DNA from: Pseudovirgaria hyperparasitica
Taxonomy: Eukaryota
NCBI GenBank assembly: GCA_010093815.1
Contig: ML996575.1
Reading direction: 5' to 3' (one strand)
DNA: 64,000 nt
Within the stretch, counting starts at the first letter, position 1. Every line of letters starts with the position of its first letter. The translations under genes and the position numbers were made by a program. Shown here piece by piece: positions 1,222 through 9,915 of this stretch. The notes beneath the pieces are model-generated. The model did not search any database. It had not been told where the DNA came from and saw only the letters and a list, made by a program, of their open reading frames with translations.

Positions 1222-3138
1222 CTACAGGTGTACCTCAACAATCGGACCCCGATATGCTTTTTGCCCTATGGCCACATACCAGATTGCAGCAAAGAGCGAT
1301 ACGAATCCAAATACAAGTACGCTAAAATTCATATTCTGTGGAGTGACTGGCGTGCCTGGGGGCCAGAAAGCCCAGAACCACAACAAAGCAAGGTAACAGC
1401 ATGCAAAGGCATTGTTAAGCGTCCCTATGAATCCTGGGATGCTCCAAGGACCCCATGAAAGGTTTCCTGGGCCTACGAGCGATGTGTCGGAGCTATAGGG
1501 TCTGATACCACCTGGTTGGAGGCGACGCCAGAGCAAAAGAGCAGCACTCAGGAAGTAGGAAGCGTAAAGTCCTGCGATACTGAGGTTGACAATGTTGTTA
1601 AAAGCTACGCTAGAGCCAAGGATGATGAGCGATAAGAGGACAGAGATTATGGTGGTTACAGCGATCGTGTAGATGGGAATCGACGTGCGAGGATCGAGCT
1701 GACCAGATATTAGTTCAAAGAAGTGCCTTGGACGAATGAACGTTGATATCCTTACCATAGTGAGCTGTCTCCAAAATGGTACGCCTTGGTCTCGGGCGAA
1801 TGACCACAACTGGCGGGACGAGGAAGCAAGTACTCCTACAGTACTGCAGATTCCCAAAACGACAATTATGATGCCCATGACCGCAGTCCCTCCGGTAGAT
1901 CCTGTGGCATTGTAGAATACATATAGAAAAGTGTATCCGTACCGAGTTGTTTCATCTAAAGCTGTCGCGAGATCGCCTAGACAAAAAAGGTAGGCAAGCA
2001 TCATTGCGAAGCCCAAAATACCGTTCAGCACAATACTGATGAGAATCGCTCGCGGTACGATTACGGATGCATTCTTGATTTCTTCGGCCATCTATTCGAT
2101 CAGTCAGCAGTTGATCATGTTTCACACCTAAAGATCACTTACATGGACTGCCGAATCTGCTCCAATCAAGGAGAAAACCGACGCGGGGAGTCCGACCATG
2201 AAGGAAAGCCCCTGAGTCTTCCAGCCGCCGCTGTTGACGAACGTAGTGAAGAACGAGGTATCGCCATGCGGTCCAAGGTACACCAACGGGATGAGGATAC
2301 CAAGGAAACCAAAAATGTGTAGGATGAGAATGACACCCTCGAAGTGTGCAAGAGTCCTACTCGCCACAGTGTTTATAAAAACTGCAAATGCAAGAATGGC
2401 CCACAGAAACATCATGGCCTGCCAAGGCTGGGGGACATATGTAGGATGGGTCAGAGCTATCACACTTTGAAGCAGTGTTCCTATCAAATAAGCTGCTGAA
2501 GCCACTACAGCTTGCCATCCAGCGGCCGTCATCCAACCTGAACTTGTCAGTGGTCTCAATCATTGAACATCGCCCATGAACAAACCAGTAATGTAGCTTA
2601 AAAATTTGCTACAGCTTGGGGGAGATAACATTGCAACCCAATGGTACTGCCCTCCAGCAGTGGGTGCCATAGATGCCAATTCTGACAATGTTGTGAAAGT
2701 TGACAATGTGCCAAGCCAAACAATGATGTATCCCCATATCACTCCAGCAGGTCCCCCGCTAGAATTTGTTAGAGACAAGGAAGGTACAGAATCACTGCAA
2801 TGCGTACTTGGCGAGGCTCGCCGTGGAGACGCTAATCCACTATCAGCTACATGTGGTATCAAGTGATTTTGCGAGCGATACATACATTAGCATTCCCTCC
2901 CACGTAATCAAGACTGTGCAAGAGAACCCCAGAATGGACATGAAGCCGAAGTTGCGCTGTGTGATATCAGCAAAGAGTCGTATATCGTCTCCAAAATCGA
3001 TACCAGCTACCATACCTTCAACACTGGCTTCTTCCCGACTCTCATGAGGTCTCGCGCATCATTGCTCAAGATGCTCTCATGACCCGCATCGTCGACTGAT
3101 GCGACTGACGCATTCTTAGAACGATTCTGGAGCTCCAT
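1222..3138 (-). CDS. APC-superfamily amino acid permease (GABA/choline transporter-like), multi-exon
   Basis: Joined ORFs give MELQNRSK...GKKPVLK, RNFGFMSILGF, GGPAGVIWG, ELASMAPTAGGQYHW, DSAVHMAEEIKNAS and SRQLWSFARDQGVPF, with many hydrophobic helices. GT-AG introns lie between the segments. Confidence 0.9.
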
Positions 3139-3859
3139 CCTGACCGAATGTATGGCTTCGCAGAACAGGTCTTCCGTGGTAAAATCAATTGCATGAATTG
3201 AGGTCAAATGAAGAGCACTGTCGCATACTTGGGTCTGTAGATGCGAAATTAATTCCAACAGAAGCTTGGACTGAGCATTTGTCGCGTGGCGTAAGCCGCC
3301 GATACTATCCATGCGGCATGGGGGCTGGTCCACGCTATACATTAGCTTGGGCCACGCATAAATGCCTACGGGCACGCACATAGACTGCGGCCCCAGTATG
3401 GCGTGATAATCCTTGACGCTCTCTAGTCTTCGCAACCTCAAACCACATGCCAATCTCTTGAAAGATATCGTAGAATGCTGAGAGCATGTCCAGCTTTGCT
3501 AGCCAGCTTTGCTGTACTGCGGCCTGCAGCCTGCATCATTTAGACTCCCATGTAACAATGACCTGGACCCATAACATTCCTATTCGGACCTACTGTCGTC
3601 AACTAGACCATATTCGACAATTGCGAATTTTAGCCTTGAATGCTGACGCGAAATCTCAAGTTCGCATGGCATAGCACACGGCTCCTTCGATCCTGCATCT
3701 ATAATGTTCTACGCTTGAAGTGGGACACTCTGACAGACAGACTGAAAGATTAGCCGCTCAGGCAGACTGTAAATACCCTAGGGACCATATTCAGTCCATG
3801 CACGTTCGTCCTTGCACGGTCCGAAATCCATCACGGCTGTCAATCTTTTGATTCTAATC

Positions 3860-5034
3860 ATGGCGACTCTTTTGCTCCCGAGAGATAGGCCTACAGTCAC
3901 CGACGACAACCTCTCCGCTGTTGTCCAAATTCTCGCTATCCTTTTTCTCTCCTTTTCAATCGTCGCAGTTGCCGTAGAGGCCACAACGAAACGTGCCATC
4001 TCCAAACGATTTGCCAACGGCGACTATGTACTCTTTGGGGCTCTTATCTTATGCATTGCTGCTACTTCTACTCTTTTGAGTCCAGCCGGTCGAAGCGTTG
4101 GTAACTCAATCGCCAATGTAGCACCAGCGACGGCGGAGAATGCTTTCAGGGCAAGAGAAACTCAACATACAAACCCCGAGAGACTACTGATTGTCTGATT
4201 GTAGGCTGTCTACGCAGGTGCCATGTTGGACGTAGTGGCTCTGGCTACGATCAAAGTTGCGATGCTATTCGCGTTCCATGGTATTACACCTGTCAAGATA
4301 CATCGCTATGCCATATACGCTGCAGGACTTGTCACACTCGCGTGGGCTATCTCAGGGCTATTCGTCATTGGTTTTCAGTGCGATGGTCCTGATCGCTGGG
4401 TGCTGGGTAAGACTAGATGCATTGAACTGGTCAGTAAAGTCAATTGCGGAAAGTGGAAGATTGCTAATCTATCAAAGACTGGCACAAGAACATACATAGC
4501 AGCTGGGAACATACTAACTGACTTAGCTCTCATAGCCATTCCAACAGCAGTCATCTCGAGAGTGAAGTTGCCCCTCACAAAGCGTCTAACTTTGCTGTCA
4601 GGCTTCTGGGTGCGACTGGTGTGAGTAATCTACAACATGCAAATTGAGCACATGTCTGACTGGTCTACAGCGTAATTGGTGTCACAACCACTCAAATCGT
4701 ATTTCTTCAGGAGCTCAATTATGCGGACGACAACTTGCTTCAAAACATTTGGAAAGTGGTAATTTGCAGAGAAGCTGTACAGTGCAGCAGCATTATGACT
4801 GCCTGCATCCCCTTTTTGAAGCCATTCATGGGTAGCCTGCAATCTGGCTTCCTTCGAGCAGACGATGTAAAGCGTCGAAATGCTGCTGGCATCACTTTGA
4901 ATGGTAACGAGTCAGATTGGTCCTCACGATATGTAGAGATTCAAAAGCAACACACCAACTCCTCGCTCCGTCTTCAATCTTTGACCGTTCAGAGTAATCA
5001 TTCGACACCTGGGACCCCTCAAAATCCTGTCTGA
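3860..5034 (+). CDS. Pth11-like (fungal rhodopsin-domain) integral membrane protein without CFEM domain
   Basis: Spliced product has about 7 hydrophobic segments and family motifs DYVL, K(VAMLF), FQC..P..W, NILTDLALIAIP, KR...F.RL, IMTACIPFLKPF. Introns at about 4151-4204 (GC-AG), 4430-4477 and 4621-4670. Confidence 0.8.
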
Positions 5035-5654
5035 ATCAAAAATGTCATGTTTTGCAAGAGGTTATATACCGTCAGTTCGTAGTGTACCTCATTTCTTTCG
5101 AAATCGAACAAAGTAAATCACATACAGTTGCAGCCCATATGTGACTAGAAGCTCAGGTCATACACAAGCCTAAACAATGGCTGATCCGGTCGTCGTGTCA
5201 TCAAATGTAACCATAGTAGATTCCCTGCCACTGACGAAAGACTTTGGCAAATCTCCACACAAACCATCTCTCGAAGTATCCTCGTTCATTGGTCGGGAGC
5301 TCTGCACTCATGCGAGGACCAACATATTCTCTAGTATATAATATATATATGCGCGCGTGTGTGTTGACAATCATTCTAACTAGATGAGACCACGAGCCAT
5401 GGATCAGACGTCCTATTCGCCCTATGAGATGCATTGTATTTGTTACCACAAGCTCATACAACCAGTTGCTCAGGTTCGAAAGTAGCTGAGCACATGATAT
5501 CCTTGAACTTCACATAAGAACGTAATGAAAACAACCATTCATCTCTATTCATACTAGTGCGCCTGTATTCTGAGATGTCAAGGTACCCATGCTCCAGCAT
5601 CATCTCCTAGTCTGTTGCCACCCCGGGATCGAACACGGGTGGAAAGAGGACCCC

Positions 5655-6042
5655 TTACTTTGATTCTACACCACCTATGTCTATAGTCAGGCGTAGAACA
5701 ATACATTGATAATGTTTTGATAGTATGTGTATGAGGTGCAACATACCATCGAACAAAGGTGGTACTGGACTAGCACGCTTTCTGTCCACGCCACCGTCGA
5801 ACAAAGGTGGTACGGGGCTACTACGCTTTGCGTCTACACCACCATCGAATAGAGGTGGGACTGGGCTGCCTCGCTTTGAGTCTACACCGCCATCAAACAG
5901 AGGTGGGACTGGGCTGCCACGGCTCTCAAATGCTGCACAGGCTGAGTAAAAGCACCTCAATCTTGCTTTATTGTATGGACGTACCGAGCGGAGCAGCGCA
6001 TGCCATAGCTGTGAAAAGGAGGACTACAGAGTAAGCCTTCAT
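5655..6042 (-). CDS. Kex2-processed repeat protein (KEP), putative RiPP precursor, 87 aa, 3 exons (6042-5985, 5932-5747, 5674-5655)
   Basis: MKAYSVVLLFTAMACAAPL-AFESR-GSPVPPLFDGGVDSKR-GSPVPPLFDGGVDAKR-SSPVPPLFDGGVDRKR-ASPVPPLFDGGVESK*. It has a signal-peptide-like N-terminus, 16-aa repeats split by KR, and canonical introns GTACGT..TGCAG (52 nt) and GTATGT..CTGAC..ATAG (72 nt). Confidence 0.9.
5658..5918 (-). repeat. Four 48-nt coding tandem repeats of the precursor (fourth interrupted by an intron)
   Basis: Units differ almost only at synonymous positions within the SPVPPLFDGGV codons. Confidence 0.9.
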
Positions 6043-6615
6043 GATGTTTGATAGGTGGTATGCTTGGTTTCGAAGAAATAGAGCTGTAGAGTATATCTTT
6101 AGGCAAGAGGTGATACTTAAATAATTCTTTCGCTTATCAAATAGTGGACGGAACGTGGTCGGACGACCTGCAATTGAGACGGAGATACACATGGAACTAG
6201 GAATATACATGCAAGGTGATTCTTGCACCGGTGACTTCCGTTCGCATAATGCAGAATCTTGATATCAGTGGCGAATGGATTTCTAGAACTCCCCAACATC
6301 GGCTAATGTGTAACCCCACGGGCCCATGGCCTTCAGTGAACAGTACAGGGTGTGACTAACGGTAGGGGTCCGTAAGAACGCCAATATGTTAGTGCGCATA
6401 CATGACAATTCTCGGAGCCACGAGCTAGTAATGGTGCTTGTAGGACGGTAGACGATCCCATACCAAGTTTTTATTCTAATCTTCTTCTTAGCTAGGTAGT
6501 TGCATGCAAGATAGAGGTAAGCCGTGGAATCTCACCCTTCTTACTCTTCGCCAATATCTAGGAATATACTGTTTCTCTCACGGCTTCTTTCATCACCATT
6601 CGGACTTCTACAAGT

Positions 6616-7591
6616 ATGGAAAGGTCAGAATTCGAACATATTCAAGATTTCAAAGACTCGCAACCTCTTCTAGAGGAGAGTGAACCTGTCAGCAGGAGCC
6701 AGAAAGCGTTCAAGCTATCATGGAACACTATTTTCACAACCCTAACAGGATTGTACATCCTGATATCGGCACCTTTCATTATCTGGCTGTTAAGGAATCG
6801 CATACCTCAAACATATTGTACGTATATCAAGGCTCTTAATATCTGGCAACCCGACTGACAAGTCCATTTATAGCCCCTGCTGCTCGTATTCTCTCTTACT
6901 CGCGCCAGCCATTATATTTCGGCGAGGAGAAGAAATACACAGGAGTCCCCGAGGACGTAGACGACGCATGGGATAACTTGCTTGCACGTAAGCTAAACAC
7001 TTTCTGCGCTATATTCTTCTGGCTTACTGGTACCGATTAGCTATGAACATTCGTGCAACCAAGAAGGAACTAGAGCAGGCTCGTGCAGACTTTGGAGAAG
7101 ACAATGTTCTGCTTACAGACGGCGATTATGTCTCCGTTCTGTCAGTGTATCACGAGCTACACTGCCTCAATGCTCTTCGAATGAACATCTATCACGACCA
7201 CTACTATCCGAACATGACTGAAGATGAGTTCAAGTACAACATCGAACACATGAGTATGTTTTACGCTCGGCGTGTGATCTCAATTCGCTGATTCTTCTTA
7301 GCCCATTGTGTTGATACTATCAGACGCAGCCTGATGTGTAAGGCAGACGTAGCCCTGTATTCGGCCTACTGGATCGGTGATCAATATACGTTTCCCAGCA
7401 AGGAGCTCCAGTCGAACTCCGACACGGTGTGTGTCGATTGGAATTCGATCGATGCCTGGTCAAGGAAACGGCTCCTACCCCGGAACAAGTACAAGGTAAA
7501 AGCAGGCCCGTTCGAGGGAAAGGCCACGAATAAGGACCATGAGCACCCCCATGAACACCCCCATGAACACCCCCATGACCAACAGACTTGA
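6616..7591 (+). CDS. DUF3328 / UstYa-like oxidase, 272 aa, 4 exons (6616-6817, 6874-6987, 7041-7253, 7302-7591)
   Basis: Single N-terminal TM helix, YSPA, VDDAWDNL, first HxxHC (VYHELHCLNALR), second HxxHC formed across intron 3 (EHMTHCVDTIRRSLMCKAD), and C-terminal CVDWNSIDAW. All three GT-AG introns keep frame. Confidence 0.93.
7538..7579 (+). repeat. 12-bp tandem repeat CATGARCACCCC x3.5 encoding (HEHP)3-HD tail of the DUF3328 protein
   Basis: Directly visible: CATGAGCACCCC CATGAACACCCC CATGAACACCCC CATGAC. Confidence 0.9.
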
Positions 7592-7876
7592 GTGATGATC
7601 GTCGTGCAGCAGGATGGGTGTTTATCCTGGTTTTAAGCTGGTGGGGCTACATTGGTGTACATGCGGCGTAGAACACCTAGCGTGCCGGTTTAGCCCGAGA
7701 TGTGCGCAACTAACACTATCTGTGTCAAATCGAAATGATATGCAGGGACATTTGTAATCCCGGATATCGTAACATGTATGGTGACCCGGGTGCACTGTTG
7801 GTGGCGCAGTGGTTATATCATAACTTTGCTCCAAAGCTCAGCAAGTCTGAACATACACCTACGACGCCCTAGCACC

Positions 7877-8884
7877 ATGATGGTATCCAACACAGAAGGC
7901 ATCGCCTCCTTTGCTGTTCCCGGGCTTGACAAACCCTGCGAGACCTGGTACAAGGTGGTTGGAGATCTCGCGTCCCCTAAGACTCCTTTGATAATTCTGC
8001 ACGGTGGTCCCGGGGCTTGCCACGACTATCTCCTTCCTCTCTCAGATATTGCATCCCACTTTCCATTGGTCTTCTATGACCAAATAGGCAATGGCAAGTC
8101 AACTCACTTGCCTTCCAAAGCCGGCGACGAAGCATTCTGGTCTGTTGACCTCTTCCGCGCGGAGTTGGACAATCTACTCGAGCACTTGGGCATCTCGGAC
8201 CGCACAATAGATGTCTATGGCCATTCGTGGGGTGGAATGCTTGCGGTGGAATGGGCTGCCAAGTCTCCTTCGGCTGTAAGACTGCGCCGTCTGGTGATAT
8301 CCAACAGCTTGGCCAGTATGACAGGATGGAGACAAGGGATGTCCCATCTGCGCAGTCAAATGCCGGCTGACCTACAGGCAGTGCTCGACCGCGGCGAACA
8401 GGAGGAGAATTTCGAGACTCCCGAGTATGAGGCTGCCATGGATGTCTTTTACCAGCGACACTTCAGTCTGGCGCGACCATGGCCGTGCAAGGAAGTCAGT
8501 GTAGCGCTGGAGTGGTTTGGCAAGGATATGACCACCTACGGTACAATGTAAGCAGGTCACTGCTCCAGGTCTTACTACGCACTGTTCAGACACCGCCCTG
8601 CTCAACATGCTAATCGTGAGACATTCAGGTACGGTCCGAGCGAGCTATACATCTCTGGCTCCCTCCGCGACTGGACGTCGGTTGCGTTCCTGCCGGACAT
8701 CAAAGCTCCAACCCTGCTGATCAATGGAGCGCAAGATGAGGCCCAAGATGTAGCCATGCAGCCATTCTTCGACCTGATTCCCAAGGTCAAGTGGGTCAAG
8801 CTGGACAATGCAGCTCACTTCTCGCATGTGGACCAGAGAGACCGTTATATGCAGGAGCTAGTTCAATTCCTTGATGTACAGTGA
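7877..8884 (+). CDS. Proline-specific peptidase / proline iminopeptidase-like (alpha/beta hydrolase, S33 family), 2 exons
   Basis: LHGGPG, YDQIGNGKS, nucleophile GHSWGG, TMYGPSE across intron 8548-8628, NGAQDE, and catalytic His in AAHFSH. No signal peptide. Confidence 0.9.
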
Positions 8885-9915
8885 AACCAGCCCGTGCGCA
8901 CGCTTAGAAGGAAGGTCTGTCAGGAGAACGAGACTGGATGTTAGGAAGTTCCGTGATGACACTAAAAAAACCACTTCCTCATCTTAGACTAGTCCCGATT
9001 GTTGTTAATACTGGTGAATCATCTTGCACTGAACTGGGTAGACGTTACTCGGCATGGCACTGGCATCAGCAGCCAAGTTGTAAACCATGCACATAATACA
9101 GGTCTGATGGGTTCTGGCTTCATTGGCGTTAGGGGAGGTCCGAGCGACGAATGCTTAACAGACGCCATGTCATTGTCAAAACACAGACTGTGGGGAACTT
9201 GCACAAGCCTGACGGTCCGTTTTGGCGTCGCGCGGCCCGTTAGTCTGCAGGGATCACGGAGCGCGCGAGTTGTGCCCATTGCAGATGTGCCGCAGACCTG
9301 ATGCGGACACGCGCGCACGTGGGGGTCTCAGCGGCGGATAATAGGTACTGAAGTCTGCATGTTGGTAGTTTTTTTTCTTTTCCTCTAGACACTTTTGATG
9401 TAAGCCCAGAATCCTATTTCCTCATTTGTAGTATTCGCTTGGTGGCAATAGCGACTAAATAGTTCAAACCAACACGCTCGCTTAATACTCTCAGCCTTTG
9501 ACAGTAAAGGCCAACCAGGAGAGGCTTATGATGCATGATATCACATTGATAGCTTAGTTGAACCAACATCCGCCACTTGTACATGATGGCACCCCATCCA
9601 GCAAACACAATGCCCAGACAACCTGCAGAACACATTGATGGCAAGCCTATACTCTCCTACCCAATTCGTCCAGGCGGCAAAGCGCCGTCCGCTAGATCAT
9701 GCCGAAAACCCACAAACCGATTTCCAAGCATCATTACACCATAGGCGCTGGACCAAGTCGGAGCGTGGCACAGGACTAGACGGGAAGGACCCCCACCAAC
9801 TTCCTCACGAAGGATTTATTGACGTACCTATTGTGCTGCTGTCGACCTCGAAACGTAATCTGCCCCTGACATCTCGCGTGAACCACAGACAACCACTATC
9901 CATCTAGTGTCTGAT

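Follow-up and report, generated by a model that had tools for sequence, protein, structure and literature searches.

A conserved precursor, UstYa oxidase and S33 hydrolase gene unit in Pseudovirgaria hyperparasitica as a candidate dikaritin-type peptide pathway with predicted non-aromatic chemistry

A 64,000-nucleotide stretch of Pseudovirgaria hyperparasitica DNA (assembly GCA_010093815.1, contig ML996575.1; hereafter the window, numbered from its first letter) contains a three-exon gene on the minus strand (6042..5655) whose 87-residue product carries four copies of the 11-residue core SPVPPLFDGGV. It appears likely that this repeat region is part of a small secreted-precursor gene within a conserved three-gene unit, together with a UstYa/DUF3328 oxidase and an S33 hydrolase, and that the unit encodes a dikaritin-type variant of the ribosomally made peptides that are modified after translation (RiPPs), with non-aromatic chemistry. 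Direct evidence covers how the gene is built and spliced, its occurrence in spliced contigs, the selection acting on the core, the consensus of the family and the neighbourhood in three fungal classes; the precursor gene probably makes a modified peptide.

The four units follow the pattern x-SPVPPLFDGGV-(D/E)-x-(KR) on the minus strand, and the interval 5918..5658 spans exactly the residue preceding core 1 through the last Lys codon. The core is identical in all four units, dibasic KR follows units 1-3, and SR stands ahead of unit 1. Tandem Repeats Finder reported one array (5745..5921, period 48, 3.7 copies, 82% matches). The original prediction had described four identical repeats with varying codons and flanks, and this was confirmed, the fourth copy through a spliced joint: the core codons vary (Leu CTG/CTA/TTG/TTG, Phe TTT/TTC, Asp GAT/GAC, Gly GGC/GGT, Val GTC/GTA/GTG), as do Ser (AGC/AGT) and Pro (CCA/CCC), and the flanking residues change (G/G/S/A before the core, DS/DA/DR/ES after it). 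Variable sites made up 10 of the 33 core nucleotides; nine fall on the third base of a codon, the tenth on the first base of a Leu codon, and all ten were synonymous. Pairs of core copies differed at 3-8 of ~9 synonymous sites and at 0 of ~24 non-synonymous sites; across the three variable linker codons, each pair showed 1-5 non-synonymous differences. Were ten core substitutions drawn at random, the chance of all being synonymous would be 3e-6 to 1e-5 (kappa 1-4). The core is held by purifying selection, as had been proposed. Tandem 48-nucleotide (nt) repeats are prone to homogenisation, and recent gene conversion or unequal crossing-over, rather than selection on the peptide, might be invoked for the identity of the four cores; we consider this highly improbable, because the high synonymous divergence among the copies rules out recent homogenisation, the linker codons do change, and the same core is retained by 15 relatives in other classes.

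By inspection, the part encoded by exon 1 is a putative signal peptide, combining a short basic start with a hydrophobic stretch and small residues. Transcript evidence was taken from contigs of two public runs (X1 and X2; region 5200..9200), which cover the precursor in three pieces per run: 5501 or 5433..5672, 5745..5932, and 5985..6223 or 6073. The contigs give a minimum transcript extent and do not show its true ends, the 5' untranslated region reaching at least to 6223 and the 3' untranslated region at least to 5433. A first prediction of 43 nt for intron 1 was replaced by the 52-nt contig joint, which makes the pro-region three residues shorter than in the first model and leaves the repeats unaffected. 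Intron 2 splits unit 4 between its two Gly codons, after base 1 of the first. Because the contig joint of 72 nt equals the predicted intron 2, the fourth core is real; an alternative in-frame acceptor for this intron, 6 nt upstream, was absent from the contigs. Unspliced stretches were also present in run X1, and an expression level cannot be read from contig depth. A word-based protein search returned no match to the window's own precursor, which for this reason seems to be unannotated.

The same word-based search yielded two relatives, one in Xylaria curta and one in Melanomma pulvis-pyrius, each with SPVPPLWDGGVDF units. An exhaustive profile search (three-sequence profile against 1.84 billion representatives; E-value (E) up to 0.001) gave 26 matches, comprising 15 small secreted motif-bearing repeat proteins, one repeat precursor with a different, Tyr-containing core (P0029), one ambiguous protein (P0023) and nine unrelated repetitive proteins. 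The 15 relatives, 13 of which carry source names, span Dothideomycetes, Sordariomycetes and Leotiomycetes. Four Xylaria species (X. curta, X. digitata, X. grammica and X. longipes) are represented among the named members, as are Botrytis byssoidea, Botryotinia convoluta, Sclerotinia sclerotiorum, Stachybotrys elegans, Whalleya, Camillea, Monosporascus, Melanomma and Hypoxylon argillaceum, whose protein also occurs in Nemania diffusa. The S. sclerotiorum protein (P0025, SS1G_12778) has one intact unit only in its public model.

From 39 units of 16 proteins, the window included with three units rather than four, the consensus [KR]R-x-S-P-x-P-P-[LI]-x-D-[GA]-G-[VILM]-[DE] was derived, and 30 of these units are preceded by KR-x. 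Loss of the core in orthologues had been named in advance as the result that would speak against selection; instead, S-P-x-P-P-[LI]-x-D-[GA]-G-[VILM]-[DE] is retained by every one of the 15 relatives. The 11-mer as such is not invariant across the family, since positions 3 and 7 vary freely: ten different residues occur at position 3, and position 7 is occupied by W (15 units), V (14), M (4), F (3) and R, S or P (1 each), with F found only in the window gene. The core was thus rightly described as free of Tyr and Trp for the window gene, a description that fails for the family, in which 15 of the 39 units carry W at position 7. No core position conserves an aromatic residue among the 39 units. 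What the family retains throughout is Ser, three Pro, Leu/Ile, Asp, Gly/Ala-Gly, one aliphatic residue and one acidic residue.

Synteny was read from consecutive accessions or locus tags, and the precursor lies within two steps of an S33 gene in seven further genomes. The three genes are consecutive in B. byssoidea (precursor EAE97_002842, UstYa EAE97_002843, S33 EAE97_002844) and in Camillea tinctor (precursor KAI5923268, UstYa KAI5923267, S33 KAI5923266, all on a 591,403-nt contig). S33 and precursor are two accession steps apart in Whalleya (KAI1073899 and ..901), H. argillaceum (KAI0875763 and ..765), N. diffusa (KAI1147698 and ..700), B. convoluta (TGO52727 and ..725) and S. sclerotiorum (EDN97921 and ..923). 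Gene order kept across three fungal classes argues for a functional unit.

The neighbourhood also bears on the possibility that Kex2 frees unmodified linear secreted peptides, such as a signal, a pheromone-like factor or an effector, on which UstYa and the S33 hydrolase do not act. Only 22% of Kex2-processed repeat proteins have a DUF3328 partner (PMC7329392), and SS1G_12778 has been placed among 70 putative effectors (PMC5381539) and termed a necrosis-inducing effector (PMC7026392). A neighbourhood conserved across three Pezizomycotina classes would be difficult to account for if the genes had no function in common, and in the window the precursor and UstYa genes are divergent and share a promoter region, with 573 bp between their start codons. 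We regard release of unmodified peptides as quite unlikely, and favour modification by the neighbouring enzymes. For the neighbouring S33 gene of S. sclerotiorum (SS1G_12775), a table of a Brassica napus infection study (PMC5372324) gives a 3-fold increase in the final one of its six expression columns.

The UstYa gene encodes 272 residues in four exons (Table 1). PF11807 was detected on two of its exon open reading frames (ORFs; 6992-7288 and 7292-7588, E 1.6e-13 and 1.9e-12), and the model contains two HXXHC motifs (HELHC at residue 143 and HMTHC at residue 175) and, by inspection, an N-terminal membrane anchor. It aligns full-length with the stand-alone orthologues P0005-P0007, and its second intron (6988..7040) was confirmed by a contig joint. 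No solved structure matched UstYa (best E 0.74). A single DUF3328 neighbour had been predicted, and the gene adjoining the precursor is indeed the only one detected: a profile of orthologous UstYa proteins and Pfam scans revealed no second copy in the window. The Pfam scans, which covered ORFs of at least 70 residues in 1-22 kb and of at least 130 residues in 20-64 kb, likewise revealed no tyrosinase, methyltransferase, P450 or amine oxidase domains and no chlorination-related genes in the window. A His-rich C-terminal tail, D-(HEHP)x3-HD (window 7535-7579), was not found in the three orthologues compared and may bind metal. Run X1 also contains joints 6607->6806 and 7026->7117 with CT..AC ends (equivalent to minus-strand GT..AG) inside this plus-strand gene; their sides are only 28-30 nt, and they could represent antisense spliced RNA or assembly artefacts.

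The third conserved gene, overlooked in the original prediction, encodes an S33 proline-iminopeptidase-family hydrolase whose intron (8548..8628) is present in contigs of both runs. Its Pfam domains are Abhydrolase_1 and Hydrolase_4 and its best family is TIGR01250; the protein aligns end to end with orthologues, and the GHSWGG nucleophile elbow is conserved. Against the TIGR01250 cut-off of 167.65 bits, exon 1 of the window S33 alone scored 132 bits, and the linked full-length orthologues P0034 and P0158 scored 219 and 201. P0034 matches solved proline iminopeptidases (3wmr, E 1.3e-71; the 1mtz group, E 1e-34).

A public 562-residue P. hyperparasitica model (P0004, 'proline-specific pep[tidase]') carries both UstYa and hydrolase domains. 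It is identical to the window UstYa exons as far as '...SDTV', from where it passes into the hydrolase without the conserved UstYa C-terminus, and its hydrolase splice differs from the contig intron. A fused enzyme is unlikely: three stand-alone orthologues (255-268 residues) align through the C-terminus that is spliced out, one contig continues without a gap from 7117 to 7739, beyond both the stop codon and the donor that the fusion model proposes, and the S33 contigs begin at 7841 and 7855. On these grounds the fusion is probably an annotation artefact. A 547-residue Botrytis tulipae model that shares a 90% cluster with 304-residue hydrolases may be a similar fusion.

UstYa-family proteins act on repeat cores released by Kex2 (PMC9233826, PMC12048977, PMC10540207). 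By analogy with reviews of dikaritins and epichloecyclins (PMC9233826, PMC10540207, PMC12048977, PMC7329392), we propose that the putative exon-1 signal peptide would bring the precursor into the secretory pathway by import into the endoplasmic reticulum, and that a Golgi kexin would cleave after the three KR sites and after the SR ahead of unit 1, giving four units of 14-16 residues. The membrane-anchored UstYa with its two HXXHC motifs may then oxidise the invariant part of each unit, and the S33 hydrolase and other peptidases may trim the product.

UstYa reactions described so far comprise bonds from the Tyr oxygen to the Ile beta-carbon (ustiloxin, phomopsin), the joining of Phe and Leu side chains (victorin) and, elsewhere, hydroxylation or chlorination (PMC12048977, PMC9233826). 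Because the SPVPPLFDGGV core has no Tyr, aryl-ether chemistry of the ustiloxin and phomopsin type cannot apply, which agrees with the different chemistry that had been anticipated. Since no aromatic residue is kept family-wide, the conserved reaction should fall on an aliphatic or Pro C-H, or involve a Ser or Asp partner. On the basis of the consensus, functionalisation of an aliphatic C-H is most likely, whether by hydroxylation, by desaturation or through a crosslink whose partner is not aryl; likely targets are a Pro, the Leu/Ile of position 6 or the Val/Ile/Leu of position 11, and position 7, which is F here, would be a diversity site.

A Phe-centred crosslink had been among the reactions suggested for this enzyme. 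In its victorin-like form, UstYa would join the adjacent Leu and Phe, and the Trp-containing relatives would react through the indole. Phe does directly follow the invariant Leu/Ile, and an aromatic residue (W or F) occupies that position in 18 of the 39 units; the remaining 21 have V, M, S, R or P there in otherwise intact cores, and five proteins have only V. The UstYa and S33 neighbours are conserved despite a non-aromatic position 7, as in B. byssoidea (M/V), and neither the copper amine oxidase nor the further UstYa genes reported for victorin were found in the window. We therefore judge this crosslink unlikely. As position 7 is mostly W, V or M and the three units with F all belong to the window gene, Phe-centred crosslinking cannot be the conserved reaction. 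An F or W crosslink is possible in members having such a residue, and it cannot be the common step of the family, for which aliphatic C-H functionalisation remains the preferred candidate. The new scaffold that had been predicted remains putative.

The unit was compared with the known fungal systems. DUF3328/UstYa has been suggested as the class-defining dikaritin enzyme, and the tyrosinase and methyltransferase of an older definition are described as not obligatory (PMC12048977). Like the ustiloxin and phomopsin systems, the window has a precursor with repeated cores flanked by KR, an adjoining UstYa with two HXXHC motifs and a predicted route of Kex2 cleavage followed by oxidation (PMC9233826, PMC7329392, PMC12048977). 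Their cores are Y-x-I-x and are cyclised via Tyr and Ile (PMC7329392), whereas the window core contains no Tyr, only one UstYa and no tyrosinase or methyltransferase gene were found in the window, and S33 is the conserved partner. Asperipin-2a is closest in layout, being made by a minimal cluster with a single ustY homologue (PMC12048977); however, it is bicyclised through internal Tyr side chains (PMC9233826), and a hydrolase replaces its accessory reductase here. The epichloecyclin cluster (gigA, gigB, gigC, kexB) resembles the window in combining a repeat precursor with one DUF3328 protein needed for cyclisation, and ring closure onto an N-terminal Pro or Ile has been discussed for it (PMC10540207). 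It differs in its conserved Tyr bridges and in a clustered SET-domain methyltransferase where the window has the S33 hydrolase (PMC10540207). By an enzyme-based definition of dikaritins, a two-HXXHC UstYa beside a Kex2-type precursor, the unit is one; by a chemistry-based definition it is not, having no Tyr anchor.

The closest core type is that of victorin, GLKLAF. It is likewise free of Tyr, and its Phe and Leu side chains are reported to form the ring (PMC9233826), a pair that is present here as adjacent Leu-Phe. Unlike in victorin, the Phe is not conserved in the SPxPP family, and no chlorination-related or amine oxidase genes were seen with it in the window.

One family member had been catalogued before as a Kex2-processed repeat protein. 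X. grammica RWA11502.1 (P0010), which has SPVPPIVDGG units, is flagged 'DUF3328 in vicinity', type 0 (stand-alone without homologues), in Table S2 of Umemura 2020 (PMC7329392); the entry describes no family, consensus, peptidase partner or product, and five other family-member accessions are absent from that table. The core motifs had no match in full-text literature, a scope outside which bioRxiv supplements and subscription journals fall, and 0 matches in the text-form supplements of PMC7329392 and PMC6339444. The literature search gave no description of the SPxPP family, its consensus, its S33 partner or its product, and an S33-type maturation hydrolase was found with no described RiPP pathway in the literature searched. 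Because antiSMASH calls fungal RiPP clusters from a peptidase beside a DUF3328 gene (PMC12048977), loci like this one may already be flagged automatically.

A broader claim is tentative, and we think it somewhat doubtful: that precursor, UstYa and S33 form an unrecognised, widely conserved fungal RiPP class with aryl-independent crosslinking or C-H oxidation, in which S33 would be a dedicated maturation enzyme and the Sclerotinia 'effector' and its Botrytis relatives would be precursors of modified peptides.

Several points weigh against the proposed dikaritin-type pathway. Its basis is gene structure, splicing and sequence comparison. Runs X1 and X2 are not recorded as RNA; we infer them to be complementary DNA because the joints fall on canonical splice sites of three different genes. 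The first cleavage site, SR, is not canonical dibasic. Positions 3 and 7 alone measure variability, as the residues allowed at the ten others were preset in the regular expression with which the 39 units were gathered. The S33 linkage comparison leaves out 8 of the 15 relatives and turned up no unlinked case, although by its design it could not have revealed one; that the intervening gene is UstYa is an assumption for five of the seven further genomes. On inspection the S33 protein has no signal peptide, whereas the precursor and UstYa are predicted to be secretory, a mismatch of location. In a tree of 40 S33 proteins built by a quick method, 19 of 37 inner branches stayed open and the cluster-linked copies formed no supported clade. 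A metagenome scan with the S33 alignment returned 80 loci, of which none (0/80) contain an SPxPP core and three (L010, L016 and L019) have UstYa directly upstream of S33. At L010 a divergent repeat precursor with proline-free, KR-flanked units stands beside the UstYa-S33 pair, and at L016 a repeat precursor was undetectable within 10 kb of the pair, from which it follows that the S33 peptidase is not bound to the SPxPP motif. The third locus, L019, has too little sequence for a precursor to be judged present or absent.

The L010 locus (4264-7858; order precursor, UstYa, S33) has units of the type GEAISE..EG..VD and may represent a sister family with the same enzyme pair. It is tempting to connect the S-P-x-P-P beginning of the core with a proline-specific aminopeptidase; several of these results tell against that idea in its simple form. 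We treat S33 as a putative maturation or trimming partner conserved with this UstYa lineage. A metagenome scan with the UstYa alignment gave 62 pattern matches, of which 0 were confirmed, and the JGI contig given for both precursor P0019 and S33 P0086 (12,314 nt in each case) was missing from the retrieved loci.

The reputation of UstYa/DUF3328 enzymes rests chiefly on ether rings built from Tyr. With no conserved aromatic residue, yet UstYa next door across three classes, the SPxPP family would offer a direct test of other UstYa chemistry. The three-gene unit is small, has members in a rust hyperparasite, Botrytis and Sclerotinia, and is well suited to heterologous expression, making it a well-defined, conserved lead for predicted non-aromatic UstYa chemistry. 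It also illustrates how such units escape notice: the precursor went unmatched in the search, the oxidase and the peptidase were merged into one model, and the Sclerotinia relative was filed as a putative effector.

Table 1. Coordinates of the precursor, its repeats and the other genes located in the window.
Feature	Position	Strand	Details
Precursor transcript, minimum extent	5433..6223	-	spliced contigs of runs X1 (5501..6223) and X2 (5433..6073)
Precursor coding sequence, exon 1	5985..6042	-	ATG 6042..6040; hydrophobic N-terminus; GTACGT donor; joint 5985|5932
Intron 1	5933..5984	-	52 nt, GT..AG; joint 5932->5985, one contig in each of two runs
Precursor coding sequence, exon 2	5747..5932	-	pro-region ending SR, units 1-3, first 8 1/3 codons of unit 4
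Intron 2	5675..5746	-	72 nt, GTATGT..CTGAC..ACATAG; joint 5672->5745 (cut +2), one contig per run, two runs
Precursor coding sequence, exon 3	5655..5674	-	end of copy 4, E-S-K, stop TAA 5657..5655
Core copy 1	5883..5915	-	SR-G before, DS-KR after
Core copy 2	5835..5867	-	KR-G before, DA-KR after
Core copy 3	5787..5819	-	KR-S before, DR-KR after
Core copy 4	5667..5771	-	KR-A before, ES-K-stop after; interrupted by intron 2
UstYa/DUF3328 gene	6616..7591	+	272 residues; exons 6616-6817, 6874-6987, 7041-7253, 7302-7591
S33 proline-iminopeptidase-family alpha/beta hydrolase	7877..8884	+	308 residues; exons 7877-8547, 8629-8884
Amino-acid permease	1222-3500	-	Pfam
Fung_rhodopsin-domain membrane protein	3782-5034	+	Pfam
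POT/PTR2 peptide transporter	9859..11791	+	Pfam PF00854, E 2.7e-46
TRI-like/BAHD transferase	13410-15017	-	Pfam
TRI-like/BAHD transferase	16198-17767	+	Pfam
GH13 glucosidase	18091-20021	-	Pfam

The S33 gene is followed by the POT/PTR2 transporter and the two TRI-like/BAHD acyltransferase genes (9859-17767). Beyond the GH13 gene, the window contains a transcription-factor-like gene, a sugar transporter, an FGGY kinase, a 22-kb AT-rich tract, a cation-efflux gene and an aldolase. The AT-rich tract (36000-58000) has a GC content of 22-38%, compared with ~50% in its flanks, contains no ORF of at least 130 residues, and resembles a repeat-rich region or one of the repeat-induced point mutation (RIP) type.

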